Positions 9,704-47,124 of a stretch of 64,000 bases of DNA are shown in pieces. Within the stretch, counting starts at the first letter, position 1. Each line of letters starts with the position of its first letter. Below the pieces are notes generated by a model. It searched no databases. It worked only from the letters and a program-made list of their open reading frames with translations, and was not told where the DNA came from. The translations under genes were made by a program, and so were the position numbers. Origin of the DNA: Betaproteobacteria bacterium (GTDB taxonomy: Bacteria > Bacillota > SHA-98 > UBA4971); NCBI GenBank assembly GCA_050260395.1, contig JBLNCC010000124.1, positions 5,997 to 69,996 of the forward strand, in the 5' to 3' direction.

Positions 9704-9740
9704 CAGTACCGAGGCCCCCCTTCGTCATCCGTCGACCGAT

Positions 9741-9822
9741 GTGAGGGTGCGTTAGCCATTGCCGCATTTCCAGCGGTTGCCGGGTTGCCGGTGTTGCACA
9801 CGGGGACGGCGCCCCAGGCGGC
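9741..9822 (-). promoter_or_regulatory. conserved 82-nt leader element, copy A (89% identical to 45696..45777), 38 nt upstream of the radical SAM gene start
   Basis: Alignment with copy B shows 9 mismatches in 82. Contains tandem TTGCCGG(G)TTGCCGGTGTTGCAC repeats and a GGGGCGCCGUCCCC hairpin. An upstream stem shows compensatory changes between copies. Confidence 0.6.
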
Positions 9823-10212
9823 GCCCGCTCCGCCTCGTTCTTGGGTTCAGGCCAGGAAAGCCTCGCCGTCGTCGACACAAACAACGGGGGCAGGCGGCGA
9901 GGCAGCAACCCGTTGTCTCGTCGCCCGCCCATGCGCCCCGCGGCCGGGCTTACCCTATCGTAACCCGATGACCCCAGAGTCTGAAAGTGAAGCAATACCC
10001 GTCGATCGCAAGGTCCATCCTGATCTTTCTGCCACCAAGCCTTCCGTACACCAAGTCCACCCCCTTTCCCCGCCTCGCGCTGCGGGAGAATTGGATGCGC
10101 TCGCCTGAGCCGGCCCAGGTCGCCTCTGACGATCTCAGTCTACCAACCCTGCGCCCGGCGCGCCATTGCCCGAACGGGGGACTTGTGGTGGCTCCAACGG
10201 ATGAACCTTGGT

Positions 10213-25026: not shown

Positions 25027-26991
25027 TCATCGCGCACCTCCTCCCGCCGGTTTGACCGAAGCGCCCGTCGTGCCGGTTCCCCCGGCGGCCGGCGTACCCT
25101 CCGCGTGAGAGCCACCCGCACTTCGATCTGAGCTGTTGAGTTGAGCGGCGAGACGCACCGGGTCATGCAGGAGCTCTTTCGCCCGGCCCCCGCCCGACTC
25201 GCCCAGAAACCGCGCGTAAAGCTCGACGACACCCGGGTTTCGACGCGGGTATCGCTCCGCGATGGCTTGGTCGATAGCCCGCAGCGCCGCGCCCCGCAGC
25301 CGCTCGGGCCCGCCCTCCGCGCCCTCCTGGTTCATCGCGATCGGCTGACCGCCTCCACCTACGCAGCCGCCGGGGCAAGCCATCACTTCGACGAAGTCGT
25401 ATCGCCGCTTTCCCGCCGCCACGTCGTTCAATATCTGCCTTGCTGCCGCAAGCCCTTGGACCACAGCCACGCGCAAGGCAAGGTGGCCGAGGGTCACCGT
25501 CGCTTCAGCCACGCCTGGACCGGGAGGCCCGCTGACAACGCGTCCGTCCCCGTCCGCCTCAAGCCTCACCCCAAGCTCGTCCGCGAGCGCCCGGAGCGCC
25601 GCGTCCATGACCCCGCCCGTAGTGCCGAATATGGCCCCTGCGCCGCTTGCGCTCCCGAGGGGGTCATCGAATCCGCTCTCCTCTAGCGACTCCACGTCCA
25701 TCTCGACCGACTGAATCAGCCGAATGAGCTCGCGCGTGGTGAGGACCGCGTCGACATCGCGCAGTGCGCCCCGCATCCCCCCGGCCCCGTGGTCTGTGCC
25801 GTCGTCCGAGGCTCCAGGCGCTTCCGGGCCTAGCCCTCCTTTCCTCGCGGCCTCGAACTTCTTCGCTGTGCACGGCATCACGGACACGACGTACACGTCC
25901 TCCGGGGCCACGCCCTCGGCCTCGTGGATCACCATCTTTGCGACGGCTCCAGCCATCATGTGAGGCGACTTACATGTTGAAAGGTGCTCAGTGAGGTCGG
26001 GATACTCGGTCTCCACAAACCTCACCCACGCGGGACAACACGAAGTGAACATGGGTAACTTTCCGCCTGTTGCCAGGCGTTGCCTTAGCTCGTGCGCTTC
26101 CTCGACCGCCGTGAGGTCCGCCCCGAACGCCGTGTCGAACACCCTGTCGAACCCGAGCTTTCGCAGGGTGGCTACCATGAGCGTCGTGGAGACCGTCCCC
26201 GGCGGCTTGCCCCATGCCTCTGCGAGGGTAGCCCGGAGCGCGGGTGCCGTCTGAGCTACCATGAGGGTCCCGCGGTCCGCGAGCTGGCGCCTCACCTTAA
26301 CCAGTTCCGACCTCTCCGAGAGTGCTCCAGTGGGGCACGCGACCACGCACTGCCCGCACTCCACGCACCGCGTCGCCGCCGCTCTGTCCTCGAAGGCGAG
26401 CGAACGGCACCGCGCCCACTCCTCGCCCAGGACCCCGCGCGGCCCGGTCCGCTCGATGATGCCGCGGGCCTCCTCGACCTCGGCGGCCAACGACTCATGA
26501 GGAACGATGCCGTGCATCTTCATGCACGCCGCGACGCACCTTCCACACATGATGCACTTGTTCGGATCGCGGACTATCGCTTGGCCCGTCCTGTCCACCG
26601 TAAGCTTCTGCCGCCTCACAGGGAGCCTGCGAACACGCACGCCGAGCTCGTCGCCAAGCGCCTTCAGCTCGCAGTATGCCCTCCGCTCACACACGAGGCA
26701 CTCTCCGGGATGCTGGGCCAAGAGGAACGTCACTACCTCGCGGCGCCTTGCCACCACCCTGTCCGTCGCGGTACGAATGACCATGCCCGGCTCCACAGCA
26801 TGGTCGCATGCGGTCACCAAATCGTCCCTGCCCTCCACCTCGACCACGCACACTCCACACCCCGCGCCGCGCTCGATCCATGGATGGTGGCACAGCGTCG
26901 GCACCCGCGCTCCGGCGCGCCTCGCGGCCTCCAGGATGGTCGTCCCCTCGGGCACACAGCACGCCCGACGGTCCACCAAGACCTCCAGCAC
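25027..26991 (-). CDS. hydA: [FeFe]-hydrogenase catalytic subunit (HydA, monomeric CpI-like M3 architecture: 2Fe-2S, accessory 4Fe-4S clusters, H-cluster domain)
   Basis: H-cluster motifs L1 TSCCPAWV, L2 MPCTAKKFE, L3 EVMACPGGCVGGGGQP. Start set at GTG preceded by GGAGGTGAGG; ORF is open back to 27144. Confidence 0.8.
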   Translation of the reverse strand: MLEVLVDRRACCVPEGTTILEAARRAGARVPTLCHHPWIERGAGCGVCVVEVEGRDDLVTACDHAVEPGMVIRTATDRVVARRREVVTFLLAQHPGECLVCERRAYCELKALGDELGVRVRRLPVRRQKLTVDRTGQAIVRDPNKCIMCGRCVAACMKMHGIVPHESLAAEVEEARGIIERTGPRGVLGEEWARCRSLAFEDRAAATRCVECGQCVVACPTGALSERSELVKVRRQLADRGTLMVAQTAPALRATLAEAWGKPPGTVSTTLMVATLRKLGFDRVFDTAFGADLTAVEEAHELRQRLATGGKLPMFTSCCPAWVRFVETEYPDLTEHLSTCKSPHMMAGAVAKMVIHEAEGVAPEDVYVVSVMPCTAKKFEAARKGGLGPEAPGASDDGTDHGAGGMRGALRDVDAVLTTRELIRLIQSVEMDVESLEESGFDDPLGSASGAGAIFGTTGGVMDAALRALADELGVRLEADGDGRVVSGPPGPGVAEATVTLGHLALRVAVVQGLAAARQILNDVAAGKRRYDFVEVMACPGGCVGGGGQPIAMNQEGAEGGPERLRGAALRAIDQAIAERYPRRNPGVVELYARFLGESGGGRAKELLHDPVRLAAQLNSSDRSAGGSHAEGTPAAGGTGTTGASVKPAGGGAR

Positions 26992-27278
26992 GCCCCTCAC
27001 CTCCAATCGCCCATTCTCTCGTGATCGATCCCTTTCGTCCCCGTTCCGCCACCCGCTCACCGTTCTCGCCGGAGACCCGCGCTCGGCCGGCGCCCGGCGC
27101 CCACCGGTCCCCGCGTGGCAGTGAGGCTCGAAAACACGCTCCATATTCTAGGGAAAACACACGCCCCACTGACCTAACGTGCGCTCCGCGCAACCCCGAA
27201 AGCCTGCGTCCACTCGCTCAGAAGGCCGCCCCAACCGGCCCCGGGGCGCCGAGATCGAGCGAACGATCCCCGGACGCC

Positions 27279-27351
27279 CTCTCATAGCCAGGTTGGTTGC
27301 GGCCTCCTGGTAGAAACGCCTGAACCCACGATTATCAGGTCTATATGAGAG
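27279..27351 (-). ncRNA. guanine-riboswitch-class (purine/xanthine/8-oxoguanine variant) aptamer candidate
   Basis: Minus strand reads CUCUCAUA-UAG-[P2]-GUUUCUACC-[P3 with CCGCAA loop]-C-UAUGAGAG. It has an 8-bp P1, the conserved J2/3 GUUUCUACC, and C at the ligand-specifying J3/1 position. It sits in the leader of the hydA-fd-aor genes inside a purine catabolic cluster. Confidence 0.5.
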
Positions 27352-27446
27352 TAACGCCTTGGAGCGCTATAGTTAGTGTCTTATGAATATTCGGCGGAAA
27401 CCTCGGCACTCCTCCCTACCCCGCCGCAGCGGTCAACGACCCGCGC

Positions 27447-31628: not shown

Positions 31629-33994
31629 GACATCTCACTTCCCCTCTTGCCGCGCGCGGCCTTGAGCGATCGCCCCAGCAGCACTCTCTCGAGGTCCAAC
31701 GGAAGCTCCCGCACTCTCCTGCCCGTCGCATGCGCCACCGCGTTCGCAATGGCCGGCGCGAGAAGCTCGCAGGTAGGCTCCCCGATGGTCTTCGCGCCGT
31801 ACGGGCCATACGAATCCGGGTTTTCCACCACGATCGGGATGACCTCTGGCACATCCACGGACGTGGCGATGAGGTACTCGTCGAAGTTCTGGGTCCTCGT
31901 GACGCCCCTCGACATTTCGACCTCCTCCAGGAGGCCGTATCCCATTCCCATGGCCACGCCGCCGTATATCTGTCCCTCCACGGTCGCGGGGTTGATGGCT
32001 CTGCCAACGTCGTGCGCGGCGGCCACCTTCAGCACTTTGACCCTGCCCGTCTCGGTGTCCACCTCGACCTCAGCTGCCTGGCAACCATACACGTACGTGA
32101 AGTAGGCCCTCCCTTGGCCGTGCTCCTCGTCCCACGAGACCTTCGGGCCCTTATACCAGCCGAAGGCCGCCATGAGCTCCCCGCGGTTGTATGCGGCCTG
32201 CGCAACCTCGCCAAAGCTCAAGCCCCGCGCGGGGTCGTCGGCGACGAATATCCTGCCTCCCGAAGACCTAAGCGCGTCGGAGGACGTTCCGAGCATCTCT
32301 CCCGCCACGCCCAGGAGCGTTTCGCGGACCTTCCGGGCGGCGTCGCGCACCGCAGACCCGCCCATGACGGTGCTGCGCGACGCCACCGTCGGGCCGCCGT
32401 CCGGGATGAGCGACGTATCGGTGTCCATGAACACCACGTCCTCCAGGTCGCACCCGAGCTCCTCCGCGGCGATCTGGCTGAAGATCGTCCGGAGCCCCTG
32501 GCCGTTCTCGGCTAAGCCTGCATACACGTATACGCTGCCGTCCTGCTGCACCGAGACGATGGCCCCCGTCGCATCAACGCCCTCCCCACCCAAGCTGACG
32601 CCGCGGTAGCTCACGGCAAGCCCGACCCCGCGGACCTTCTTCGCCCCTTCCCGCCGCGCCGCCTCAGCATATGCCCGCCTTTTCTCGCGGTACCCGATGG
32701 CCTCCGCGGCCTTTTGCATCACCTCCACAAGGCTCACCGCGTGGTCGTCGAGCGTCTGGCCGGTGGCCGTGACCGACCCTTGCCGGAAGCCGTTCTTCAG
32801 GCGCAGGTCCAGCGGATCCATGTTGAGCTCGGCGGCAAGCTCGTCCATCAAGGACTCGTGAGCGAAGATGATCTGCGGGCTTCCGAACCCCCTCATGGCG
32901 CCCGTGTACGTATTGTTCGTGTATACGCCGTACACATCTGTCTTGACGTTAGGGACCTCGTAAGGCCCAGTCGCCTGCACCACCGAGCGCCACGTCACGA
33001 ACGGCGTCATCGAGGCGTAGGCCCCTCCGTCTGCCAGGATGCGTATCTCCATGGCAAGGAGCTTGCCGTCCCTCGTAGCCCCGACCTTGTACCTGAGCAC
33101 GTATGGGTGTCGCTTGTATCCCTCGACGATGGACTCCTCGCGGGTGTTCACCATCTTCACGGGCCGTCCCGTCTTGAGGGCCGCCAGCGCTGCCCGCGCG
33201 CACATGCACGACATAACGTCGTCCTTGCCTCCGAACGACCCTCCCATCGCGCACTGAACGATCCGAACCCTGTTCAGGCTCACCCCGAGGACGTGCGCCA
33301 CGACGCGCCTCGCGGTGAAAGGGTTCTGGATCGACCCATATACCGTGACGGATCCTTCGCCCGGGTTCGGGACCGCCACCGCGGCCTCGGGCTCAATGTA
33401 CGCGTGCTCGATGAACTGGGTGCGGTACTCGCGCTCGATGACGACGTCTGACGCGGCGAACCCGGCGTCCACGTCCCCTTTGCGGACTACGTGGTGGTTT
33501 ACGATGTTGCCAGGCGCGTCGTCGTGTAGGATCGGTGCGCCCTCCGCCATGGCTTCTTCCGGCGAAAACACGGCGGGAAGCTCCTGGTACTCGACGCGCA
33601 CGAGCTCGCAAGCCCGCTCGGCCGCCTCCACGGTGGCCGCCACGGCCATTGCCACGCCATCGCCCAAATAACGCGTCTTGTCGAAGGCGAACACGGGCAT
33701 ATCCCGCCGCACCGGTCCGAAGGTCTTGGCACCAGGGATGTCCTCGTGAGTGATGACAGCAGCGACTCCCGGGACTCTCGATGCCTCGCTTGTGTCGATT
33801 CGGACGATCCTCGCGTGGGGGAACCTCGCCCGCAGCACACGTGCGTAAAGCATGCCGTCGAAGTACAGATCCGCCGCGAATTTCGCCCTGCCGGTCACCT
33901 TCTCCACCGCGTCCACACGCCTCGCCCGGTGGCGCACTATGCTGAATTCATCCTGCAGGCCGTCCCTGGCGGCCGGGTCTCCAGCATTCCCCAC
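31625..33994 (-). CDS. xanthine dehydrogenase-family molybdopterin-binding large subunit
   Basis: 789 aa. VDAVEKVTGRAKF N-terminus, GGGFGGK, Mo-pterin binding domains. Confidence 0.8.
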   Translation of the reverse strand: MGNAGDPAARDGLQDEFSIVRHRARRVDAVEKVTGRAKFAADLYFDGMLYARVLRARFPHARIVRIDTSEASRVPGVAAVITHEDIPGAKTFGPVRRDMPVFAFDKTRYLGDGVAMAVAATVEAAERACELVRVEYQELPAVFSPEEAMAEGAPILHDDAPGNIVNHHVVRKGDVDAGFAASDVVIEREYRTQFIEHAYIEPEAAVAVPNPGEGSVTVYGSIQNPFTARRVVAHVLGVSLNRVRIVQCAMGGSFGGKDDVMSCMCARAALAALKTGRPVKMVNTREESIVEGYKRHPYVLRYKVGATRDGKLLAMEIRILADGGAYASMTPFVTWRSVVQATGPYEVPNVKTDVYGVYTNNTYTGAMRGFGSPQIIFAHESLMDELAAELNMDPLDLRLKNGFRQGSVTATGQTLDDHAVSLVEVMQKAAEAIGYREKRRAYAEAARREGAKKVRGVGLAVSYRGVSLGGEGVDATGAIVSVQQDGSVYVYAGLAENGQGLRTIFSQIAAEELGCDLEDVVFMDTDTSLIPDGGPTVASRSTVMGGSAVRDAARKVRETLLGVAGEMLGTSSDALRSSGGRIFVADDPARGLSFGEVAQAAYNRGELMAAFGWYKGPKVSWDEEHGQGRAYFTYVYGCQAAEVEVDTETGRVKVLKVAAAHDVGRAINPATVEGQIYGGVAMGMGYGLLEEVEMSRGVTRTQNFDEYLIATSVDVPEVIPIVVENPDSYGPYGAKTIGEPTCELLAPAIANAVAHATGRRVRELPLDLERVLLGRSLKAARGKRGSEMS

Positions 33995-34070
33995 GTGCCT
34001 CGAGCCCCCTTTCCATTTCCAGCGCCATGTGCCGACCTCCCGCCATGCGCCGGCGCCGCGTTGTGCGCCG

Positions 34071-36431
34071 TCACGCGTCTCGGGCCCCTGCGGCCTTCCC
34101 GTCCCGTTTCTTGAGAGCCATATACACCCTCTCCGCGGTGGCCGGTATTTGTGTTACCCATATACCGGTAGCATCGTGGACGGCGTTTGTGATGGCAGGG
34201 GTGATGGGCACACACACCGCCTCCCCGATTCCCTTGGCCCCGAAGGGCCCAGATGGCTCAAGTTCCTCGACGATTATGGTCTCTATGTCCGGCGCGTCCA
34301 GGGAGGTCGGGATTATGTACGTCGAGAAATCAGGCGTCTTCGTGATCCCCCGTTCGATGACGGTATCCTCCATCAAAGCGTATCCCATCCCCATCACCAC
34401 GCCGCCCTCGGACTGCGCCTCGATGCCTGCGGGGTTTATGGCCTTGCCTGGATCTGGGATAGACACGGCCCGGAGCACCTCGACCTCGCCGGTGAGGGTA
34501 TTCACCTCTACAAGCGCAACCTGAGTGATGTAAGAGTAAATGAGATGCGGCAGGCCGAAATGCCCCTCGACACCCTTGTCGGCGACCGGCCAGATGAAGT
34601 CTCCTTCGGTTTTGGGCCTCCTGCCCTTGTCCTCCGCGAGTTGCGCGATGTCTCGGAACGAAAGGAAGCCAGCAGCAGACACGCCTTCCTGCGGTCGGCG
34701 CGGTTTGGCCCGCACGCCTCCGCGCTCGAAAGCGATGTCGTCGCGCGGCACGCCCAGCTCCTCCGCGGCCACGTCCGCGATGGCCTCACGCATCCTGGCG
34801 GCCGCGCACCGGATGGCGTTCCCGCCGGTGTACACCGAGCGAGACGCAGTGGACGTGCCGGAGTCCATGGTGCGCCCTGAATCCCCCGACACCACCACGA
34901 TGTCTCGGACGGAACACCCGAGGCTATCCGCGGCCATTTGGGCGAAGGCCGTGGTGTTGCCCTGGCCGATCTCGGGGCAGCTCACCCCCACAGCAAACCG
35001 TCCATCCGGCAGAAGCTCGATGGTGGCCGCACCGTAGTCAGGAAGCCCCAAGCCCAGCCCGCACCCGTGAAGCTCGGTCGCAAGCCCCACACCTCGCTTC
35101 TTGTAAGGGGCCGAAGGCTTTGCTTTCAATTCTTCGCGCCGCGCCCAGAGCTCGCACCTGGACGCAGCCTCGAGTGTGGCCGCCGCACCAACCGATGCCG
35201 TCATCGTATGCCCGAGAGCCGCCACATCTCCGCGGCGCAAAGCGTTCTTGAGTCGGAACTCGAGCCTGTCGAAGCCGAGGCGTTCGGCGATCATGTCTAC
35301 CTGCGTCTCCAGCGCGAACGTCACTTGGTTCGCGCCGAACCCTCGAAACGCTCCAGCGAGGCCGTTATTGGTATACACGCAGAATCCCTCCAGCCTCACG
35401 TTGGGCATGCGGTAGGGTCCGCATGAGTGCTCGATGGCAAGGTTTACGACGGGGCCACCAAGCGAGGCGTACGCGCCCGTGTCGGCGACCACGCGCACCT
35501 CGTTCGCAAGGAGCGTGCCATCCGCGGCGGCCGCGGTCTTCATGCGGATCTTCATGGGATGCCGTTTCATCCCAGCAATGACCGACTCTTCCCGCGAAAG
35601 CACGATCTTCACGGGACGCCCCGTCCGGAGCGCAAGGAGCGCGAGGTATATCTGGACCGTTATTTCGTCCTTGCCCCCGAACGCCCCGCCGGCAGGCGTC
35701 GATACGACGCGGATCTTCCTGGGGTTCATGCCGAGGGCGCGCGCTATCTGGAGCTGGTCCCTAAAGGGATGCTGGCTTCCGCACCAGACAGTGATGTTGC
35801 CCTCCTCGTCCAGAGCGGCGACGCCGCTCTCGGTCTCCATGAAGGCGTGCATTTGCCTGGGCGTGTAGTAGGTGTTCTCGACCACCACCGCGGCCTCGCG
35901 GAACGCCGCGTCCACGTCTCCCCTCTCCACCTTGATATGATGGTGGATGTTCCCGCTGGCGTGAACCTTCGGCGCGGACTCCAGCATGGCTTCCTCCGGA
36001 TCGTCCACGACGGGAAGGGGCTCGTACTCGACGTCGATGGCCCGCAGAGCCTCGCTCGCCTTTTCTTTCGAGACCGCGGCCACCAGCGCGACCGCGTCAC
36101 CCATGTAGCGCACCTTGTCAAAACAGAGAACGGGCTGGTCGGGAACAACTATGCCGAAGCCATTGAGGCCGGGCACGTCTTTGTGGGTCAGCACGGCCAC
36201 CACACCGTCCATGGCTTCGGCTTTCGAGGTATCTATCTTTTTGATAAGAGCGTGTGGGTACGCGCTCCGCAGGACAGCTCCCCAGAGCATGCCCGGAAAC
36301 GAGAGATCGGACATGAACTTGAGCTTCCCAGTCACCTTCTCCACCGCGTCGACCCGGGAAACCCGGGCCCCAACCCACCTCGGCTCGCTCAAACGCGCTC
36401 CCTCCTCCCCACCAACACGCATCTTTCGCAC
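34071..36431 (-). CDS. second xanthine dehydrogenase-family molybdopterin-binding large subunit
   Basis: 786 aa. VDAVEKVTGKLKF, GGAFGGK, GIGQG. A paralog of the 31625..33994 gene. Confidence 0.8.
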   Translation of the reverse strand: MRKMRVGGEEGARLSEPRWVGARVSRVDAVEKVTGKLKFMSDLSFPGMLWGAVLRSAYPHALIKKIDTSKAEAMDGVVAVLTHKDVPGLNGFGIVVPDQPVLCFDKVRYMGDAVALVAAVSKEKASEALRAIDVEYEPLPVVDDPEEAMLESAPKVHASGNIHHHIKVERGDVDAAFREAAVVVENTYYTPRQMHAFMETESGVAALDEEGNITVWCGSQHPFRDQLQIARALGMNPRKIRVVSTPAGGAFGGKDEITVQIYLALLALRTGRPVKIVLSREESVIAGMKRHPMKIRMKTAAAADGTLLANEVRVVADTGAYASLGGPVVNLAIEHSCGPYRMPNVRLEGFCVYTNNGLAGAFRGFGANQVTFALETQVDMIAERLGFDRLEFRLKNALRRGDVAALGHTMTASVGAAATLEAASRCELWARREELKAKPSAPYKKRGVGLATELHGCGLGLGLPDYGAATIELLPDGRFAVGVSCPEIGQGNTTAFAQMAADSLGCSVRDIVVVSGDSGRTMDSGTSTASRSVYTGGNAIRCAAARMREAIADVAAEELGVPRDDIAFERGGVRAKPRRPQEGVSAAGFLSFRDIAQLAEDKGRRPKTEGDFIWPVADKGVEGHFGLPHLIYSYITQVALVEVNTLTGEVEVLRAVSIPDPGKAINPAGIEAQSEGGVVMGMGYALMEDTVIERGITKTPDFSTYIIPTSLDAPDIETIIVEELEPSGPFGAKGIGEAVCVPITPAITNAVHDATGIWVTQIPATAERVYMALKKRDGKAAGARDA

Positions 36432-36477
36432 ACGTACTACGCCCCGCGGCGCTGACGCTCGGCCAAATCTTGCGCGC

Positions 36478-36705
36478 TCACCCGCCCCCCACCGGGGTTA
36501 GAATGTGCACGTTCGCGCCGTCCGTGAGCACGGTGTCCTCGTCCGCCCGCCGTCCGTTCACAAGGACGATGATGTACACCCTGTCCTCTATCTTGAGGCG
36601 GTCAAAGAGGTCGGAGAGCTTCGCACCCTCCTCGAATTCCATCTGGAACTTGTCCTCTTTCGCGTACTTGCGCATGGTCCCGAACAGGACAACGTTGACC
36701 TTCAT
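36478..36705 (-). CDS. MoaD/ThiS-like ubiquitin-fold sulfur-carrier protein (C-terminal GG)
   Basis: 75 aa ending ...ILTPVGGG. Confidence 0.6.
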   Translation of the reverse strand: MKVNVVLFGTMRKYAKEDKFQMEFEEGAKLSDLFDRLKIEDRVYIIVLVNGRRADEDTVLTDGANVHILTPVGGG

Positions 36706-37640
36706 GCCTGCCGAACCTCCCCGGCGTCGTCGCCCTCAGCGATGAGGCCTAATAGACCTTCATAGAGAAGGTTACACGCCATCTCCTGGCGGTAAGCCAG
36801 AGATCCCCTTATGTCGGTTATGGGCATCACGTCGCGGAACGCGAGGCGCGAGATATACCTCGCAGCAGCTGCATCAAGCTTCTTTCCGGCCAGCGCCTTC
36901 TCAACCGTGCGCGCCCTCACGACCGTGGGCGCGACCGATCCGAAAGCGACGCGCGAGTCGTCGAACGTCGTGGAATCCAAACGCCGCGCGACAAAGGCCA
37001 CGCTCACCACGGATATGGCGAGCGCCCCTCTCTGACCCAGCTTGCGGAAGAACGACACATACCCCTGCCCAAGCGCGCGGAACCTCACTCCGAGGACCAG
37101 CTCGTCCGGGGCCAGCACCGACTTCTTCGGCCCCGCGAAGAACGATTCCACCCCAATGGTCCGAACGCCCCCGGGACCCCTTACATCTACCGACGCCTCC
37201 AGCGTGAAGAGCGGCGGTATCACGTCTCCCGCCGGGGAGGCCGTGCACAGGTTACCGCCGATGGTCCCTCTTGCCCTTATTTGGGGCGAGCCCACGTGGG
37301 CGCACGCGTCAGCGAGCAACGGAGCGGCCGCCCTCACAATAGGGGACGACGCAACGTCGGCATGGGTGGTGAGTGCGCCGACCCACACCACGCCACCACG
37401 GACCGCTGCTCCGGCGGGCTTGTCCTCGCACGGCGCGGCTGCGCCATCCTCAACGCGCACCCCGCGGAGCTCCTCGAGGCGGCTGATATCCACCAGGACC
37501 GCCGGGGCACGCTTCTCCTCCTTCATCTCGACGACGATGTCGGTCCCCCCGGCTATGATCCGCGCCTCGGGCCCCCACCTGGCGAGGGCCTCGAGAGCTT
37601 CATCCACGCTTTCAGGGACCGCGACGCTAAATGGCTTCAC
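36702..37640 (-). CDS. xanthine dehydrogenase-family FAD-binding subunit (second copy)
   Basis: AGGTDIVVEM, GTIGGNL. 4-bp overlap with the moaD-like gene. Confidence 0.75.
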   Translation of the reverse strand: MKPFSVAVPESVDEALEALARWGPEARIIAGGTDIVVEMKEEKRAPAVLVDISRLEELRGVRVEDGAAAPCEDKPAGAAVRGGVVWVGALTTHADVASSPIVRAAAPLLADACAHVGSPQIRARGTIGGNLCTASPAGDVIPPLFTLEASVDVRGPGGVRTIGVESFFAGPKKSVLAPDELVLGVRFRALGQGYVSFFRKLGQRGALAISVVSVAFVARRLDSTTFDDSRVAFGSVAPTVVRARTVEKALAGKKLDAAAARYISRLAFRDVMPITDIRGSLAYRQEMACNLLYEGLLGLIAEGDDAGEVRQA

Positions 37641-38842
37641 ACCGCTCCCACCTTTGGCTTAAGCTGTATGCACTCGTAAACCGGGCATACCGTGGCGCAC
37701 ATGCCGCAGCCCTTGCACTTGTTCTCGTCTACCCTGGGCAGACGGTTGGAGTCGAGCTCGATGGCTTGGTGCCCGCCGTCCCTGCAAGCGATGTAGCAGA
37801 GGTCGTCCTTGATACACATTTCGTGATTGATCGTGGCAACCACTTTGTGCTTGCGCGAGAGCCGCGAGTGTTCAACGATGTATGGGAGGGATTTGCCAAC
37901 AAGCTCGCGAACGGAGCTCATGCCCTTTTCCTCCAGGTAAACATCGAGGCCGTCGACAAGGTCCTCGATGATCCTGAAGCCGTGCCTCATCACAGCCGTG
38001 CAGAGCTGGATGTTGGTGGCACCTACCAAGAGGAATTCCACAGCGTCTCTCCATGTGCTGATGCCGCCCACCGCAGCGATGGGGATGTCGACGGCCTTAG
38101 CGATCTCGGCCACGCACCGGAGGGCGACGGGCTTGATCGCAGGTCCGGAATAGCCACCAAAAGTTGAATAGCCGCCCACGTTTGGATAGGGAACGAACGT
38201 GTCGAGATCGATCCCGATGAGGCTCTTCAGCGTGTTGATGGCGCAGACCCCGTCAGCCCCCGACCTTTTCACGGCACGAGCTGCCGCGGTGATGTCTGCT
38301 ATCTGAGGGGTCAGCTTGATGACGACCGGGACGCGCTTCGCGGCCTCTTTCACCCACCGTGCAGTGCGCTCCGTGAACTCCGGGTCCTGGCCGATGGTGG
38401 AGCCCATACCCCTCTCTGGCATGCCGTGCGGGCATGAGAAGCTGCACTCAATCAGGTCCACGCCGGCCGCTTCCAGCCTTCGCACGAGTTCCTGCCAGTC
38501 TTCCTTTTTCGCGCCCATGATGCTCGCACCGACCACCCTGTCGGGGTATTCTTTCTTGAGAGCCCTCACGTCCTCCTCAACCTGATCGATGTGGCGCTCG
38601 GAGATGAGGTCGATGTTCTCGAGCCCCATGAGCTTCTTCTCCTCGTAATCGAGCCCCGCCATCATCGGGTACACGAGCTCGACAACCTCGGTTTCGACCG
38701 AGGTGGTCTTGAGGATCGCGCCGCCCCAACCGGCCTCGAACGCGCGCGCGACCAGCTCCGCGCTGTCCGTAGGCGGTGCGGCCGCAAGCGTGAACGGATT
38801 TGGAAATCTCACCCCACAAAACTCGATGGATAGGTCTGCCAA
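37637..38842 (-). CDS. dihydroorotate/dihydropyrimidine dehydrogenase family protein (PreA-like) with C-terminal 2x[4Fe-4S] ferredoxin domain
   Basis: DHOD/DPD TIM-barrel (GADGVCAINT) plus C-terminal CxxCxxCxxxCP x2. Confidence 0.75.
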   Translation of the reverse strand: MADLSIEFCGVRFPNPFTLAAAPPTDSAELVARAFEAGWGGAILKTTSVETEVVELVYPMMAGLDYEEKKLMGLENIDLISERHIDQVEEDVRALKKEYPDRVVGASIMGAKKEDWQELVRRLEAAGVDLIECSFSCPHGMPERGMGSTIGQDPEFTERTARWVKEAAKRVPVVIKLTPQIADITAAARAVKRSGADGVCAINTLKSLIGIDLDTFVPYPNVGGYSTFGGYSGPAIKPVALRCVAEIAKAVDIPIAAVGGISTWRDAVEFLLVGATNIQLCTAVMRHGFRIIEDLVDGLDVYLEEKGMSSVRELVGKSLPYIVEHSRLSRKHKVVATINHEMCIKDDLCYIACRDGGHQAIELDSNRLPRVDENKCKGCGMCATVCPVYECIQLKPKVGAV

Positions 38843-38934
38843 CTCCGGTCCCTCCCGTGTGCCAGAATGTGTGCGTCACCTCTCACAGCCGCTCTTCCTC
38901 TCCTGAGTGGAGCGCCACAGGTCCCCGCCGTTCC

Positions 38935-40569
38935 TCAGCGAGAGAGATCTCCCCGCGACAGATGCGAGCCTACACCCTGACCAGGCTGACCAGGCTCCGG
39001 CCCGCGCCCAGGGATCGCATCTGACGCAAGGCTGACCTTGCACCGCTTCCAGCTGCGGTTCGGAAGATAGGCATCGGGATCAAGCAGGATGCACCTAACC
39101 GGATGTTTAGTGCATATCATGAGGACCTGGTCCCGGCCGGTGAGGGTGACCTTCTCGCGCGTCTCCCACTCACCGCCCGCGAGAAGCACGTCAGCCTGGA
39201 CGGGACCGACCGCGTCGCCCGTGTTCACAAGCGAGAATTTCGTCACAAAACCTCCCCCAGGCTTCGGAGAGCACCGCGCACCGCGGATCTCGTACGCAAA
39301 ACTCGCGGTCGTGCCGAGCCATTGCTTGATGAGACCATCCACAGGTTTGCCCGACACCCTCTCCGCGATCTTTACGAACTCCGCGAGACCGGACGGCTTC
39401 GCCCTGTACATCGCCACGTGCCGCCTGAGTGTTTCGAAAAAGGCCTCGCTTCCGAGCGTGTGGTGAACGAGCCTCAACACCAGGGCTGACCTGATACAAA
39501 CGTGCCTCGGCGCGTCGAGCACGCGGCTCCTCGCCCACGACAGCACGCTTTCCTCGCCTCCCGATCCGACAGCGGAGTCAGCCGCGTACCTGTCGATCTC
39601 CTCATGGATGAGCGCAGCGTGTGCCTCATCCCCGAGAACGCGCCCGACGGTCTCGTACGCCATCGCCCGCGCCAGCGCCTCGTGGAACCATGTATCGCCG
39701 AACCCGACAGAGATCGGGCTGCCCCACCAGATATGCGCTGTTTCGTGGGCAAGAGCCGCGACAAGCCGCACGAGGTGCTCATCCCCTGGGTACTGGCGCC
39801 TGAGCACCACGGCAAAACGCCGGGTTTCCGGCTCACCAAGCATCGATATGTACGCGTCGATGACCCCGCGGAAAAGCTCCATGACCTCGGGAGCCTGTTC
39901 CGTGAGCCGAGGGCCTAGGTAAAGGTCGAGTTGTAGGCCTTTATGCGTCGCACGCTCCAGTGTGAATCTCCCGGCCGTAAGCGCAAGCCCGGAAAGGGGC
40001 TCCCGCGTCTCCCAGACGTACACGGCCCGGCCCTCGGTCTGCGACGACGAGACGAGATCCCCATCGGTTACCCCGACCATCCCTGGGAACGTCGCGCACG
40101 ACACCCTCGCCGTGAACGAATCGAACCCCGCCCCGACTGGATACCATGCTGACCTCCGCGAGAGGCGCAGGCCGCCCTCTTCTATGCGCGCCCACCTGCC
40201 GCCCGCCGGCCGGCCGCCGTATATGAAGGTAAGTCGCGCTTCCCGTCCCTCCTCGAGAGGCTCCAGCAGATAGACCCATACAGCCTTCAGCCCAGGCGCG
40301 TCCGCGAGCTCCGTTTCGCGCGTCTCCACGCGCTCGCCGTCCATGACCACAGCGCTCACGGCAAGGCCTTTGTTCAGCACGAAACAGTGCTTCGTCACGC
40401 CGGGCGCGAGCGCCTTCAGGACGAGGACAGCAGTGGCCTCGAGCTTTCCTTGTTCGACGTCGGTCCACACAGAGATGTCGTAGCGCGTGACCGTTGCTTC
40501 GTCGCCCGAGCGGGCGAGTGAAGAAAAGAGATGCGTTCGTTTTTGCCTGGCCACCCAGCCGATGCCCAT
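38935..40569 (-). CDS. M1-family (gluzincin) metallopeptidase-like protein
   Basis: HETAHIWWG followed by E 18 residues after the second His (HExxH-X18-E). Confidence 0.55.
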   Translation of the reverse strand: MGIGWVARQKRTHLFSSLARSGDEATVTRYDISVWTDVEQGKLEATAVLVLKALAPGVTKHCFVLNKGLAVSAVVMDGERVETRETELADAPGLKAVWVYLLEPLEEGREARLTFIYGGRPAGGRWARIEEGGLRLSRRSAWYPVGAGFDSFTARVSCATFPGMVGVTDGDLVSSSQTEGRAVYVWETREPLSGLALTAGRFTLERATHKGLQLDLYLGPRLTEQAPEVMELFRGVIDAYISMLGEPETRRFAVVLRRQYPGDEHLVRLVAALAHETAHIWWGSPISVGFGDTWFHEALARAMAYETVGRVLGDEAHAALIHEEIDRYAADSAVGSGGEESVLSWARSRVLDAPRHVCIRSALVLRLVHHTLGSEAFFETLRRHVAMYRAKPSGLAEFVKIAERVSGKPVDGLIKQWLGTTASFAYEIRGARCSPKPGGGFVTKFSLVNTGDAVGPVQADVLLAGGEWETREKVTLTGRDQVLMICTKHPVRCILLDPDAYLPNRSWKRCKVSLASDAIPGRGPEPGQPGQGVGSHLSRGDLSR

Positions 40570-40607: not shown

Positions 40608-41951
40608 TTACCTTAGGTAACCATCGATGACCTCAGCCGCACGCTTCCCCTCGGCCACAGCGCGCACGACAGTGGCGCCGCCGTTCACAGCGTCGCCCCC
40701 GGCGAACACCCCTTCGACCGACGTCATCCGCGTTTCGTTCCCTACCATGATGACGCCGGCCCCCTCAACGGCAAGCCCGCTGAAAAGCTCAGCGAGCCCC
40801 GGCCACGGGGCTTGGCCAGCCGCCACGATGGCGGTAGGTACCTCGATCATATGCTCAGTCCCAGGGATCATTTCTGGCCTTCTCCGCCCGCTCGAGTCAG
40901 GCTCACCCAGGCGCGTGCGGACACACTCGATTCCCGCGAGACGTCCGTCCCGGCCGATGAACCTCACGGGGCTCGTAAGGAACTCGAACCTCACGCCTTC
41001 CGCAACCGCGAATTCATACTCCCTTTTCCAGGCGGGCATTTCCTCACGTGAACGCCGGTACAGCACCACGACCTCCGACGCGCCGCAGCGCAACGCCGAG
41101 CACGCCGCGTCCATCGCCACGTTCCCACCGCCAATGACCGCCACTTTTCCAACAAGGCTCGGGCAGTCTCCGGTGGCCGTCCTCTGCAGAAACTCGCCGG
41201 CCGGCAGAACGCCAGCGAGGTCTTCTCCCGGAATCCCGAGCAACGACTGGTAGCCCAGGCCGGGAGCGAGGAAAACCGCGTGGTACGACCCGCGGATCTC
41301 GGCTGCCGACGCGTCCTTGCCCACGCAAATCCCAGGTTTCACCTCTATGGAAGGTGATGCGAGCACGGCGACTATCTCGGCTTCGGCCACCGCGAGCGGG
41401 AGCCTGTACCGGGGTATCCCGCGGACGAGGAGCCCACCCGGTTTCTGCGCGCTCTCGTAAACCGTCACCGCGTGACCGCGTCGTGCGAGCTCGTGGGCGC
41501 ACGCGAGGCCCGCAGGACCCGACCCGATCACCGCCACCCTCCTACCGGTTGGCCCGCCCGGCCCCGGCGGCTTGATCCCTCGCTTCATCTCCTCGTCTGC
41601 GACAAACCGCTGGAGCGCAGCTATTGCTATCGGTTCGGAAAGGTTCGTGCTGGAACACCTTTTCTCGCAGAGCTCCTCAGCAGGGCATACCCTCGCGCAG
41701 ACGCCCGCGAACACGTTGGCCTCGCGTATGAGCCGCGCCGCACCGATGAAGTTCTTCGTCTTCAGCCTCCGGATGAAGCCCGGCACATCCACGCCGGCCG
41801 GGCACCCCGCGACACACGGGGCGTCGTGACAGAAAAGGCACCTTGAGGCCTCGGCGAGAGCCTCGTGAATCGGAAGCCCGCCCTGGACCTCCTCGAAGCC
41901 CGTCCTCCGCGCCTCTGGTGAAAGCTCCCTCATCCTGGCTCTAGCACCCAT
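40608..41951 (-). CDS. GltD/PreT-like NAD(P)H-dependent Fe-S flavoprotein oxidoreductase (glutamate synthase small-chain family; YgfT/YgfK-type)
   Basis: 4Fe-4S cysteines (CLFCHDAPC...CP), two Rossmann GxGxxG motifs (GSGPAG, GGGNVA). Start set at an internal Met because 41952-42185 is low-complexity and contains a repeat element. Confidence 0.7.
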   Translation of the reverse strand: MGARARMRELSPEARRTGFEEVQGGLPIHEALAEASRCLFCHDAPCVAGCPAGVDVPGFIRRLKTKNFIGAARLIREANVFAGVCARVCPAEELCEKRCSSTNLSEPIAIAALQRFVADEEMKRGIKPPGPGGPTGRRVAVIGSGPAGLACAHELARRGHAVTVYESAQKPGGLLVRGIPRYRLPLAVAEAEIVAVLASPSIEVKPGICVGKDASAAEIRGSYHAVFLAPGLGYQSLLGIPGEDLAGVLPAGEFLQRTATGDCPSLVGKVAVIGGGNVAMDAACSALRCGASEVVVLYRRSREEMPAWKREYEFAVAEGVRFEFLTSPVRFIGRDGRLAGIECVRTRLGEPDSSGRRRPEMIPGTEHMIEVPTAIVAAGQAPWPGLAELFSGLAVEGAGVIMVGNETRMTSVEGVFAGGDAVNGGATVVRAVAEGKRAAEVIDGYLR

Positions 41952-42060
41952 CCGGATGACCGCCTCCTCGCCAAAACTCCGCAGCCCGGCCCAGACCAGA
42001 CCGATACCTACCGAGTAGATCCCTACCTTACGAGACGAGCTCGCGCTGCTTTGCACCACA

Positions 42061-42178
42061 CAAGTCCTGCCTAGTGTTGCCGGTGGTTGTGCGACGGGGC
42101 GTTGAGAATTCGGCCGTCCCGCGCGCCGAATTCGAACGAGGCGCGCCGCAAGCGCGCCGTCCCCGGAGCGCAACACCG
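42061..42178. repeat. nested palindrome whose 15-bp perfect inverted arms carry the core of the 82-nt leader element (copy C)
   Basis: CTAGTGTTGCCGGTG (42061-42075) is the exact reverse complement of CACCGGCAACACTAG (42164-42178). The right arm GCGCCGTCCCCGgagcGCAACACCGGCAAC matches the A/B core. Inner palindromes are GAATTCGGC...GCCGAATTC and GGCGCGCcgcaaGCGCGCC. Confidence 0.65.
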
Positions 42179-42254
42179 GCAACACTAGCTCTCTCAGAAA
42201 GAGAAACGAAGACTCATAGCCCCATGCTCAGCCTACCGGGGCGAGCGAGCGTGC

Positions 42255-43187
42255 TCAGCGCTTGTTGTTCTTGACCTGGATCATTTGAGCCACGATGGCC
42301 ACGGCGATCTCCTGGGCCGTTTGAGCGCCTATATCAAGCCCTATCGGCGCATGCACGTACGCCACGTCGGCCTGAGAGAAGCCCTCGCCGAGGAGCGCGT
42401 CGAACGTGGCACGCACCTTCGACCGGCTCCCGATCATGCCGACGTAGCATGGGCGCGGCTCGCGCCTCAGGCACTCCGTCAGGACCCTTCGGTCATGGGC
42501 GTGGCCCCGCGTTACGATGACCACGTACGTCCCGGCGTCCATCGGTATCGCGCGGGCCGCCTCCCCAAGATCCGAGACGACAACCTCATCGGCCACGAGC
42601 TTTTCCCTGTCGGCGAACTCCGGCCGGTCATCCACAACCACGACGCTGAACCCCGCCACGGTTGCGATATGGGCTACCGCCGCGCCCACGTGCCCGGCAC
42701 CGAACACTACGACTCTCGGCCTAGGCACGATGGGCTCGATGTACACCGTAGCCGCTCCGCCGCAGATCATCCCCAGATTGTCCTGGGTGCCCGGCGCAAG
42801 CTCCACCTGGACGAGCCTCGGCCTCCCGCTTGCCAGAGCATCCTCGGCCTCACGAATGATCCTGGCCTCGAGGGCTCCTCCGCCCACCGTTCCGACGGTA
42901 GCCCCGCCCGGGAAGACCAGCATCTTGAAGCCGGGAAGCCCCGGCGATGAAGCCTCGGTGGCGATCACGGTGGCGAGCGCCGCACGACCGCCTTCATCGA
43001 TGAGGCGGGCTATCTCCCTGTAGATGGCGACGGCGTCAGCTGGCCCGGCGCCCGATGCCGATCCGCGAGGACCTGACTGGGGGGCCGACCCCACTTCGGG
43101 CCTGCATTCAGGCGCCCGCCCACTCTCCGATCCATTTGCCTGTCCCGTGTTCACTCGGAGCTCGTTCCTTTCTCCCTCTTGTTTCAC
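42255..43187 (-). CDS. XdhC/CoxI-family molybdenum-cofactor insertion chaperone
   Basis: Two-domain XdhC architecture with a Rossmann-like C-terminal domain (VVFGAGHVGAAVA). Confidence 0.75.
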   Translation of the reverse strand: MKQEGERNELRVNTGQANGSESGRAPECRPEVGSAPQSGPRGSASGAGPADAVAIYREIARLIDEGGRAALATVIATEASSPGLPGFKMLVFPGGATVGTVGGGALEARIIREAEDALASGRPRLVQVELAPGTQDNLGMICGGAATVYIEPIVPRPRVVVFGAGHVGAAVAHIATVAGFSVVVVDDRPEFADREKLVADEVVVSDLGEAARAIPMDAGTYVVIVTRGHAHDRRVLTECLRREPRPCYVGMIGSRSKVRATFDALLGEGFSQADVAYVHAPIGLDIGAQTAQEIAVAIVAQMIQVKNNKR

Positions 43188-45616: not shown

Positions 45617-45695
45617 GCATTCCTCCTCTTCTACCGTTTGCCCCTTCCAATGGGGCGGGCCAATCGGGACGGTCCTTCTCTAGAAGGATTTCTAA

Positions 45696-45777
45696 GTGAG
45701 GGTGCGTTAGTCCTTCCCCCATTTCCAGTAGTTGCCGGGTTGCCGGTGTTGCACTCGGGGACGGCGCCCCAAGCGGG
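45696..45777 (-). promoter_or_regulatory. conserved 82-nt leader element, copy B, 80 nt upstream of the carbamoyltransferase start
   Basis: 89% identical to 9741..9822 in the same orientation relative to its downstream gene. Confidence 0.6.
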
Positions 45778-45788
45778 GCGCGCTTCGC

Positions 45789-45824
45789 CAAAATCCGGCC
45801 CATCAGGCCAGTGGCCGGATTTTG
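45789..45824 (-). terminator. intrinsic terminator candidate after the M20 peptidase gene (AAAAUCCGGCC...GGCCGGAUUUU)
   Basis: 11-bp perfect stem flanked by an A-tract and a U-tract. Confidence 0.5.
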
Positions 45825-45885
45825 ACACCCTCCTGCAATCACCGGCAGCCCCTCCCAAAAGTCGGGAGGATTTCTGCACCCCCGT

Positions 45886-47124
45886 TTAGAAGGATCGCTC
45901 CGTTACCTGCCTGTACACCGTCGGAAACAGAGCATAGAACATGGCAGACCTCACGAGATGCTCCACGCTTACTTGATCGTCCACGGAGTGAGAGTGCCTC
46001 TCCTCGCCCGGCCCGAACCCGATTGTAGGGATGCCGAGCCTCCCCATGGTGGCGGTGCCGTCGGTCGAAAACACCCATTTGCTCGTGCGGGGCTTTTCGC
46101 CGAAGAGCGACTCAGCGCACTTCACGCCCGCCTGCACCAGAGGGTGGTCCTCCTCCAGGACCCACGTGGGGAAATACTTCTCCCAGCTCCGCCTGTATCC
46201 TGTGTAGCTCGGCGAATCGTACGTGAGCAGGCCCACATCCGCGTCTTCGGCCCCGGGCAGCGACCGGATCTCCTCGATGGATGACTCGGTGGTCTCGCCC
46301 ACTGTCATCCGTCTGTCCACGTAGATCGTGCACTCATCTGGCACGACGTTGAGCGAGCCGGTCTTGCACTCGATGGACGTCACGGCGATGGTCCCGCGCC
46401 CAAGGAACGGGTCGTCTTTGAGCCTGCCATTGAGATCCTCGATGCCCGCCACTATAGGCACCATCTTGTAGATGGCGTTCACCCCGCGCGCGGGAGCGCT
46501 CGCGTGGCACGACACGCCCTTCGTGGTCACTTTGATTTCACACCGGCCGCGATGCCCGCGGTTTATCTGCAGGCTGGTGCACTCGCCAAGCACCACGCAC
46601 TCCGGTTGAATCCCTTGAGTGGTGATCATCTCGTGGACGGCCCACCCGTCGCAGTCCTCTTCTTGCACCACTCCGGCGACGTGCAAGGTGACGTCGTCGG
46701 GAAGGAGTCTCAGGTCTGTCATGACGCGCGCGCCCCACACCATGCAGGCGATGGCAGCCTTGTTGTCAGACGCGCCGCGTCCGTATACAACGCCGTTTTC
46801 ATACTTGCCCTGGAACGGGTCCCACTTCCACGCGGCGCGGTCTCCCACGCCCACCGTATCGATGTGCGAGTCGTACAGGATCTTGCGACGCCCCGACCCC
46901 ATCGTGCCGATGACGTTGCCGATGGCGTCCACCTTCACGTCATCGAACCCGGCCCTTTCCATCTCAAGTCGGATCCGGCAGATACACTCGCCTTCATTCG
47001 TGCTGGTGCTCGGTATCGCGATTAGCTCTCGAAGAAACGTGACGATGTTCTCCCTGTATCCCTCCACAGCCTCCCTTATCTTCGTAGCTTGTTCCCTGTC
47101 CGCGCTGGCGCCGCCCAAACTCAT
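45886..47124 (-). CDS. M20-family peptidase/amidohydrolase (YgeY-like; ArgE/DapE/ACY1 family)
   Basis: HIDTVGVGD, GASDNKAA, and the E-E and H metal ligands typical of M20 dimetallohydrolases. Confidence 0.75.
   Translation of the reverse strand: MSLGGASADREQATKIREAVEGYRENIVTFLRELIAIPSTSTNEGECICRIRLEMERAGFDDVKVDAIGNVIGTMGSGRRKILYDSHIDTVGVGDRAAWKWDPFQGKYENGVVYGRGASDNKAAIACMVWGARVMTDLRLLPDDVTLHVAGVVQEEDCDGWAVHEMITTQGIQPECVVLGECTSLQINRGHRGRCEIKVTTKGVSCHASAPARGVNAIYKMVPIVAGIEDLNGRLKDDPFLGRGTIAVTSIECKTGSLNVVPDECTIYVDRRMTVGETTESSIEEIRSLPGAEDADVGLLTYDSPSYTGYRRSWEKYFPTWVLEEDHPLVQAGVKCAESLFGEKPRTSKWVFSTDGTATMGRLGIPTIGFGPGEERHSHSVDDQVSVEHLVRSAMFYALFPTVYRQVTERSF

Follow-up and report, generated by a model that had tools for sequence, protein, structure and literature searches.

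A decayed miniature inverted-repeat transposable element as the probable source of a nested palindrome in a Bacillota purine-degradation cluster

The 64,000-nt stretch of contig JBLNCC010000124.1 (assembly GCA_050260395.1) analysed here, called the window throughout, carries a 118-bp nested palindrome in the spacer between an XdhC-like accessory gene and a gene for a GltD/PreT-like oxidoreductase. The palindrome is best read as the middle part, stem and tip, of a miniature inverted-repeat transposable element (MITE) that is old and has partly eroded, a genomic parasite and not a switch for the downstream gene; this reading is given a probability of about 0.85. The non-coding members of the family to which the copy belongs occur in dozens of copies per genome; on this reading they are non-autonomous and make up a new family of a known kind. 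Its origin is probably IS630/Tc1-like. The window holds three copies, designated A, B and C, of which copy C contains the palindrome.

Within copy C lies a perfect 15-bp inverted repeat, CTAGTGTTGCCGGTG and CACCGGCAACACTAG, whose arms are 100% complementary and separated by 88 nt. Given the window's base composition, the expected number of such repeats with both arms inside 150 nt is only about 0.02 in 64 kb, so the palindrome is not a product of chance. The original prediction, drawn from the letters of the window, had recognized this repeat, but had placed its arms at 42061-42075 and 42164-42178, 10 nt too low. Both of the interior palindromes that it described were found: tip hairpin 1 pairs GAATTCGGC (42106-42114) with GCCGAATTC (42125-42133) across 10 nt, and tip hairpin 2 reads GGCGCGC-cgcaa-GCGCGCC. 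In the family alignment, hairpin 2 is missing from one subfamily.

The palindrome itself is therefore real, but the 118-bp unit is not a whole feature; it is merely the centre of an element of about 224 bp. A search with nhmmer, using a profile of 38 full-length family members, aligned copy C from 42071 to 42221 with an envelope of 42049-42231, and by eye its degenerate tails reach approximately 42008 and 42231 and resemble the consensus of one of the family's tail types, Td. Because these Td-like tails extend beyond the 15-bp arms, the CTAG found at both ends of the 118 bp is no boundary. It is instead a mutated form of the CCTGG/CCAGG stem extension present in the family.

The right half of copy C contains the family core. 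Its 14-mer, GCAACACCGGCAAC, is found at exactly three positions of the window, 9784-9797 on the minus strand, 42170-42183 on the plus strand and 45739-45752 on the minus strand; with two further matches at 2 mismatches the total is 5, against 0.59 expected. A core common to copies A, B and C had been predicted together with a uniform GTCCCCG-N4-GCAAC spacing. The common core holds, while the spacing does not: GTCCCCG and GCAAC are N3 apart in copies A and B and N4 apart only in copy C. According to the family alignment, this 1-nt indel in copy C is balanced by an extra C on the opposite arm. BLAST and profile searches of the window returned these three family copies only.

Copies A and B differ in preservation. 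Copy A is a decayed right half, consisting of hairpin 2, the core and a tail of type Ta, while copy B is intact. The ygeY-like gene takes its TAA stop (45886-45888) from the terminal CTAA of copy B, and what appears to be the terminator of that gene is hairpin 1 of the element. The ygeY-like orthologue on contig L194 (sequences from relatives carry L numbers here) ends at a TGA three codons before the position of this TAA. The 9-mer ATCCTTCTA occurs on both sides of copy B, one occurrence abutting one end and the other 5 nt from the opposite end, next to a TCCTTCTAGAGAAGGA palindrome (45680-45700 and 45886-45889); this may be a longer duplication or the original palindromic target.

Beyond the window, a scan for the exact pattern GTCCCCG-N3/4-GCAACACCGGCAAC in one genome per species, divided into 8-kb tiles, located the core in more than 113 tiles, nearly all of them in seven related Bacillota metagenome-assembled genomes (MAGs). 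The genome-wide search that had been proposed thus finds the core repeated elsewhere. Among the matches listed, at least 27 tiles belong to Yes71-24, at least 25 to MAG107, at least 17 to MAG-64, at least 15 to AS04akNAM_80, at least 13 to AS02xzSISU_21, at least 7 to UBA6811 and at least 3 to MAG111, and four further Bacillota MAGs have at least one tile each. The assemblies carry the accession prefixes JASEJE for Yes71-24, JBLNDE for MAG107, JACIXY for MAG-64, DUMQ for AS04akNAM_80 and JAAYXB for AS02xzSISU_21. Two isolated matches outside the clade, in a Streptomyces coding region and in a gammaproteobacterial MAG, look like chance. A blastn search in distant mode for plasmid-borne relatives of the element gave no match. 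Several core matches fall at contig ends. Contig L046 (JASEJE010000052.1), whose whole length is 7063 bp, holds four family copies around dnaX, recR and a deaminase gene, one of them at each contig end in inverted orientation. Since copies sit at contig ends, as at both ends of L046, the family evidently breaks the assemblies of these MAGs. In uncultured high-GC Bacillota of digester and bioreactor origin, the elements make up an abundant repeat family not described before, which could serve as a lineage marker as well as being a cause of assembly fragmentation.

The anatomy of the full elements is modular. Reading of the flanks shows that they are bounded by CTAAGT...ACTTAG, giving C-TA-AGT...ACT-TA-G at the junctions, and that their end-to-end sizes cluster at 190-200 and 210-220 bp. 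The 57 full elements with paired ends measure 193-212 bp where listed, which leaves no room for a transposase gene, and they are non-coding. Their terminal inverted repeats follow (TA)AGTG.GGGTGC... and ...GCACCC.CACT(TA). Inside the termini each element has one of at least four alternative tail modules, Ta to Td; in Td-type copies the complementarity of the ends spans the whole tail. Between the tails is a long stem, in which GTTGCCGGTG.TTGC..GGGG pairs with CCCC..GCAA.CACCGGCAAC and a tandem G.A/A.G mismatch is conserved, and then come the two tip hairpins. Hairpin 1 distinguishes the element types: type 1 has AAAATCCGGCC/GGCCGGATTTT and a 3-nt spacer, type 2 has GAATTTGGC/GCCAAATTC and a 4-nt spacer, and a third type, from AS04akNAM_80, has GAAATTTGGC/GCCAAATTTC.

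The junctions suggest how the elements move. The dinucleotides just outside AGT...ACT are TA/TA in 41 of the 57 end-paired elements. Two elements carry matching pairs other than TA, TC/TC in L013 and AC/AC in L112, the latter with outer bases T and A; such pairs are the signature of a 2-bp target duplication and not of an end encoded by the element. In a subset of 21 elements defined by a regular expression, the outer junction base is C on the left in 19 and G on the right in 17. Four pairs of filled and empty sites were found among the tiles. In the two cleanest, L096/L055 and L086/L091, an empty site of 4 nt (CTTG and CGGG, respectively) stands against a filled site of the form C-TA-[element]-TA-G. 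L090/L014 and L006/L082 are compatible with this but poorly aligned. The junctions and the two cleanest pairs together indicate C-TA-G as the target. Elements would accordingly insert at TA, preferably within CTAG, and duplicate the TA; a target-site duplication of the kind expected of a MITE has moderate support from these sites, the empty ones coming from diverged genomes.

This preference has a consequence for where copies come to lie. CTAG is five-fold depleted in the window, with 42 occurrences observed and about 214 expected from base composition. Where an element end meets a gene at its 3' end, it overlaps the stop codon by exactly 3 nt in about 30% of cases; this is most simply explained if the element entered a C-TAG stop, which would thereafter read C-TAA. 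CTAG is scarce in these GC-rich genomes and TAG is a stop codon, and for this reason many copies are found exactly on stops. An element that targets TA within CTAG in a CTAG-poor genome would be funnelled onto stop codons and would regenerate a TAA there, a choice of target that minimises harm to the host.

Three chimeric copies, L068:5385-5640, one near the end of L082 on the minus strand and L097:700-1000, consist of a complete element joined at the internal CTAG (GGTGCTTGC-TA-AGT...) of a type-2 element. The internal CTAG of type-2 elements seems to be a hot target, or else the chimeras seem to stem from aberrant or one-ended events. As nested insertions they were set aside as clean evidence of duplication: all three lack the distal half of the outer element, which makes the right junction unreadable.

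Relatives differ in which insertions they carry. The bioreactor contig L114, whose GltD-like protein is 90% identical to that of the window at the amino acid level, has copy C at the same place. L115 (78%) has a 95-nt spacer with half an element only, resembling a Ta tail, and in L116-L121 (64-67%, with lower GC content) the spacer is about 45 nt and holds no element. The proposed comparison of orthologous loci therefore separates loci with and without the insertion. The half element, L115:2150-2243 (CCGGCAACCCGGCAGACGCTGGAAAACCCGGAGGAATCGACGAACCACCGCTTTGAG), spans the distance from the XdhC-like stop to the ribosome-binding site; its similarity was judged by eye and was not scored by nhmmer. 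It suggests that this spacer may have been used repeatedly and independently. Elsewhere, MAG-64 (L060) is syntenic with window positions 32283-40189 at about 84% nucleotide identity and has a type-1 element after its XdhB-like gene, at a place that is empty in the window. L194 lacks copy B; in it the OTCase is 96% identical and the spacer measures 61 nt instead of the window's 269 nt. As a clean empty site for copy B, L194 was rejected: its spacer is too diverged for the original target to be read, and it documents absence only. The family is thus one of many dispersed copies with insertion polymorphism between relatives. The number of tiles, the terminal inverted repeats, the TA junctions and this presence and absence among relatives bear out the part of the original prediction that spoke of a REP/MITE-like mobile repeat family.

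Duplication of TA is a hallmark of IS630/Tc1-mariner elements, and a preference for CTAG is that of IS630 itself. The C-TA-...-TA-G junctions agree with this target, and the enzyme that mobilises the elements in trans would be a DDE transposase of the IS630/Tc1-mariner type, working by cut and paste. Because no partner was found in 812 kb of related sequence, the transposase family is read from the TA/CTAG signature only. A transposase of the IS5 family is a barely credible alternative. The target context of the present elements is CTAG or YTAR-like, and a precedent exists in MITEPsy1, an IS5-family-related MITE for which insertion with duplication has been reported at CTAG or YTAA (PMC3189936). 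However, the flanks CTAA... and ...TTAG of the present elements are reverse complements in which only the central 2 nt repeat directly, and the empty sites of the two clean pairs retain 4 nt, not 0, which fits a duplication of 2 bp and not of 4 bp.

Several observations weigh against a MITE of the IS630/Tc1-like kind. No autonomous element or transposase with matching ends was found in 812 kb of related sequence. The genomes that provide empty sites are 15-20% diverged and none shows an intact CTAG, and the 2-bp duplication rests on length bookkeeping together with the two matching non-TA cases. Conservation is highest in the inner stem and not at the termini, although this impression is inflated by the search pattern, and the interior is more conserved than a model with only a transposase requires, as judged from covariation and from a compensatory pair between the window and L114. 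Since the interior is conserved and covaries, something beyond recognition of the ends may be selected. The search for a partner was made in several ways. Inverted end pairs at distances typical of an insertion sequence (IS; 260-3500 bp) are absent from the 812 kb of tiles, no multi-copy open reading frame (ORF) occurs among the 561 ORFs of the tiles, and the short repeat-bounded contigs L042, L046, L070, L078 and L110 hold no transposase. These contigs encode SpoIID, DnaX, RecR, a deaminase, enoyl-CoA hydratase, asparagine synthase and aldo-keto reductase.

The conservation of the interior is best seen in its folded structure. Copies B and C fold as long hairpins with a forked tip, at -100 to -108 kcal/mol with z scores of -3.8 to -6.5. 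The RNA folding that the original prediction called for was done on both strands of copy C, and both fold, at about -100 to -108 kcal/mol (z -3.8 and -6.5). Covariation was tested on a core alignment of 90 sequences with a hand-drawn structure of 32 pairs, in which 93.7% of the cells are paired. Both-sided changes occur at 10 pairs; none of 500 shuffles reaches the observed covariation, and all slid controls score lower. Across the family, hairpin 1 covaries at 8 of its 11 pairs. Invariance in the 3' half of the long stem carries no weight, because the search pattern fixed this half. Most changes separate subfamilies, which means that independent events are few; individual copies (L023, L045 and L100) nonetheless have compensatory changes of their own. 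The tandem G.A/A.G mismatch is retained while the pairs that flank it change from A-U to G-C and from C-G to U-A. The 307-nt spacer of the window and that of L114 differ by six substitutions, two of which are the paired positions 42075 and 42184. These change from T...A to G...C between the window and L114, leaving the 15-bp repeat perfect in both organisms; the estimated chance of accidental compensation is roughly 1%. Single-sided changes produce G.U 12 times and A.C 10 times, and with the two in balance nothing points to one transcribed strand. Either the hairpins matter to the element or template switching within the palindrome keeps the structure perfect; the data cannot separate a hairpin that would act as DNA from one that would act as RNA, nor selection from conversion.

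These results raise the question of whether the family is a structured repeat of the REP/REPIN kind. A domesticated Y1 (RAYT/IS200-like) transposase would then spread it in the form of a single-stranded hairpin, or the host would keep it for a structural role such as mRNA stabilisation, termination or binding of a nucleoid protein. The long hairpin with its forked tip, the covariation of the stems between subfamilies and the compensation in single copies, the compensatory pair between the window and L114 and the conserved G.A/A.G mismatch would all suit such a repeat. So would the strictly intergenic position of the copies, often just after genes, the runs of A4 and T4 that flank the type-1 hairpin 1 in the manner of a weak bidirectional terminator, and the lack of a DDE partner in the 812 kb. 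Yet the terminal inverted repeats, the TA junctions and the two matching non-TA pairs fit the staggered cut of a DDE-type enzyme, and the elements have ends of CTAAGT/ACTTAG and a unit of about 200 bp in place of the GTAG/CTAC head and 20-40 nt unit of a REP. The near balance of G.U and A.C gives no sign of a strand-specific RNA, no RAYT gene was seen in the 812 kb inspected, in a search that was not exhaustive, and template switching within palindromes can yield compensatory changes without selection. A REP/REPIN-like repeat is consequently judged quite improbable.

A related proposal, also unlikely, is that the core, with its GTTGCCGGTG/CACCGGCAAC stem, tandem G.A and covarying tip hairpins, is a functional folded nucleic acid to which the tails merely supply transposition ends, making the family a new REPIN-like or structure-dependent mobile class. 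Were this so, the core would be recognized as a single-stranded DNA or RNA hairpin by some enzyme or host factor, and the family would not be an ordinary deletion derivative of an IS.

The remaining alternative gives copy C a role in gene expression. The original prediction had allowed for an operator or a long-range structured RNA serving the GltD-like gene, and a broader version would make the repeat a cis-regulatory element, operator or leader RNA, of a purine-catabolism regulon common to three operons of the window. The arrangement in the window invites this idea: each of the three copies has a minus-strand gene downstream of it, two copies belong to the selenium-dependent purine degradation cluster, the Ta tail points to the downstream start codon in copies A and B, and L115 retains only its Ta-like remnant directly before the ribosome-binding site of the GltD-like gene. 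Across genomes, however, dozens of copies per genome lie beside genes that are unrelated to one another, among them dnaX, recR, spoIID and those for asparagine synthase, enoyl-CoA hydratase and aldo-keto reductase. Crude gene calling placed only 1 of 98 copies within a gene; the elements are intergenic. Where both flanking genes run in one direction, the core reads as sense 21 times and as antisense 16 times, with no orientation bias, and the tail types face gene starts and gene ends about equally, none preferring starts. Within the window, the core is antisense to its gene in copy C but sense in copies A and B. Copy B is absent at 96% amino acid identity and copy C is absent farther out, while the genes are conserved. 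The genome-wide distribution has already largely refuted the regulatory reading. The unrelated neighbours, the lack of orientation bias and the lack of an Rfam match speak equally against an operator or structured RNA for the GltD-like gene, and a purine-regulon element is very improbable.

Individual signals were also sought. Rfam gave the element no match at the gathering threshold in the search over the whole window and none at E<=1 on copies B and C. In promoter and terminator scans, none of copies A, B and C showed the pattern of a sigma-70-like promoter or of a terminator. A sigma-54 promoter was dismissed because the conserved block, examined by eye, has no acceptable -24/-12 spacing. 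An intrinsic terminator was dismissed as well, since the three copies have no terminator-like site; hairpin 1 of type 1 is followed by four T only, and copy C has none. The Ta tail was considered as an outward promoter facing gene starts, but 8 Ta ends face starts and 8 face ends. A riboswitch or leader RNA was rejected on the absence of orientation bias, the unrelated neighbours, the balance of G.U and A.C and the absence of an Rfam match.

As a MITE insertion, copy C accounts for the unusual layout of its locus. The original prediction had held that the N-terminus of the ORF 40608..42185 is not coding, and this proved correct. That ORF starts at a GTG within the right arm of the palindrome, while the Pfam domain Fer4_20 begins only at its residue 94. 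Homologues align from residue 1 of the 447-amino-acid form that starts at 41951, and in relatives the XdhC-like stop lies just 45-95 nt before the GltD-like start. The 78-codon extension up to 42185 is non-coding in view of the position of Fer4_20, the ATG at 41951 preceded by GGAGG and the match of homologues to the 447-amino-acid form. That relatives without copy C have the two genes about 45 nt apart likewise marks the long extension as spurious, and the false 78 codons should be removed from the annotation of the GltD/PreT-like gene.

Copy C and its remnants make up about 224 of the 303 nt that separate the two genes. The element would have entered a short spacer in an ancestor shared with the L114 organism, after which its termini eroded. 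All that can be demonstrated of its effects is a longer spacer, 303 nt in place of about 45 nt, a highly stable hairpin in any read-through transcript and the spurious in-frame extension of the ORF. Because the XdhC-like and GltD-like genes are 45 nt apart without the element, they probably form one operon. The hairpin of copy C has no U-run after it. Its regulatory role is presumed to be little or none, and its presence neutral for downstream expression; an effect on mRNA processing or stability is possible. Copy C thereby explains an unusually long spacer within a purine-degradation operon, and comparable "leaders" in these genomes should not be taken as regulatory RNAs. Coordinates are collected in Table 1.

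Table 1. Copies of the repeat, their parts and the genes adjoining copy C (window coordinates; a dot marks features listed without a strand)
Feature	Coordinates	Strand	Basis
Copy A, partial decayed right half (hairpin 2, core, Ta tail), upstream of radical SAM/SPASM gene	9737..9858	-	BLAST, profile search
GltD/PreT-like oxidoreductase gene, true start ATG 41951-41949, GGAGG upstream	40608..41951	-	Pfam, homologues, relatives' spacers
Copy C, read as a whole decayed type-2 MITE with degenerate tails on both sides	42008..42231	.	nhmmer profile, flanks by eye, folding
Left arm of 15-bp inverted repeat (CTAGTGTTGCCGGTG), includes conserved stem half GTTGCCGGTG	42071..42085	.	repeat search, family alignment
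Tip hairpin 1 (GAATTCGGC-N10-GCCGAATTC), homologue of type-1 AAAATCCGGCC/GGCCGGATTTT	42106..42133	.	repeat search, covariation
Tip hairpin 2 (GGCGCGC-cgcaa-GCGCGCC)	42140..42158	.	sequence reading, family alignment
Family core GTCCCCG-GAGC-GCAACACCGGCAAC, query of genome-wide scan	42159..42183	+	motif search
Right arm of 15-bp inverted repeat (CACCGGCAACACTAG)	42174..42188	.	repeat search
XdhC-like accessory gene, upstream neighbour of GltD-like gene	42255..43187	-	domain annotation
Copy B, intact 198-bp type-1 element between ygeY-like and OTCase-like genes	45692..45889	-	BLAST, profile search

By gene and domain annotation, the window encodes a selenium-linked purine degradation cluster. The genes of the cluster encode a YgeY-family hydrolase, SsnA, two xanthine-dehydrogenase-like sets, a D-hydantoinase/dihydropyrimidinase, carbamate kinase, an OTCase-like carbamoyltransferase, PreA-like and GltD-like oxidoreductases and a PuuR-like regulator. 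The plus strand is C-rich (C 34.3%, G 28.9%), consistent with most genes being on the minus strand. Away from the repeat, a purine riboswitch aptamer, RF00167, scores 45.9 bits, above its gathering score, at 27265-27368 on the minus strand. It lies about 120 nt upstream of an ORF at 25027-27144 (minus strand) whose best NCBIfam matches are families of group A [FeFe] hydrogenases; such a gene is unusual behind a purine riboswitch, though this one is inside a purine-fermentation cluster. A sigma-54-dependent activator at 11141-13189 on the plus strand has PrpR_N, PAS, Sigma54_activat and HTH_8 domains; after it, also on the plus strand, come LarA-like, TctC, TctA and isocitrate/isopropylmalate-dehydrogenase-like genes. 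Between this activator and copy A is a small LuxR/GerE-type regulator (10213-10710, minus strand). Two minus-strand genes resemble radical SAM/SPASM maturases: that at 53129-54766 matches the SCIFF peptide maturase family with 547 bits, while that at 8375-9703, directly downstream of copy A, has no equivalog-level match. A cluster of three tRNA genes occupies 746-1014 on the minus strand.

The family can be compared with several known bacterial repeats. One is RUP (repeat unit of pneumococcus) of Streptococcus pneumoniae, the textbook bacterial MITE tied to an IS630-family element, in which the target duplication is TA. RUP is a 107-bp MITE linked to IS630-Spn1, with target-site duplications and inverted repeats like those of an IS630-family element (PMC3049150). 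Like the present family, it is small, non-coding, high in copy number, intergenic and strongly folded and has terminal inverted repeats. The present element, in contrast, has twice the length of RUP, a GC-rich sequence and a modular build, with tails of four or more types and a forked tip of two hairpins, and the two share no sequence similarity. No cognate IS of the present family was found in the 812 kb of related sequence, and frequent landing on stop codons is not a described feature of RUP.

Correia elements (CREE/NEMIS) of Neisseria are MITEs in the 100-155 bp class, with inverted repeats, a TA duplication, a place in operon transcripts and long hairpins. The present family shares with them its MITE class, inverted repeats, TA duplication, placement in operons and long hairpins. 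The sequences are unrelated, and for Correia elements promoter-like ends, IHF sites and sites of RNase III processing have been demonstrated by experiment. BOX elements of S. pneumoniae are composed of interchangeable sub-sequences and are highly structured when transcribed (PMC3049150). Interchangeable modules and strong structure are common to both families, but BOX elements carry modules A, B and C in tandem with a variable number of boxB, while the present family combines a constant core with alternative tails.

REPs are units of 20-40 nt with a GTAG head, and they have neither terminal inverted repeats nor a TA duplication. The present family resembles REP, BIME and REPIN sequences, which RAYTs mobilise, as intergenic palindromes whose hairpins are conserved by compensatory change, yet it is without the defining REP features of a 20-40 nt unit and a GTAG head. 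Finally, MITEPsy1 of Pseudomonas syringae has the same target preference, for CTAG or YTAA (PMC3189936). MITEPsy1 is 100 nt long and generates a 4-nt duplication, whereas the present family has unrelated ends and a duplication of 2 nt.

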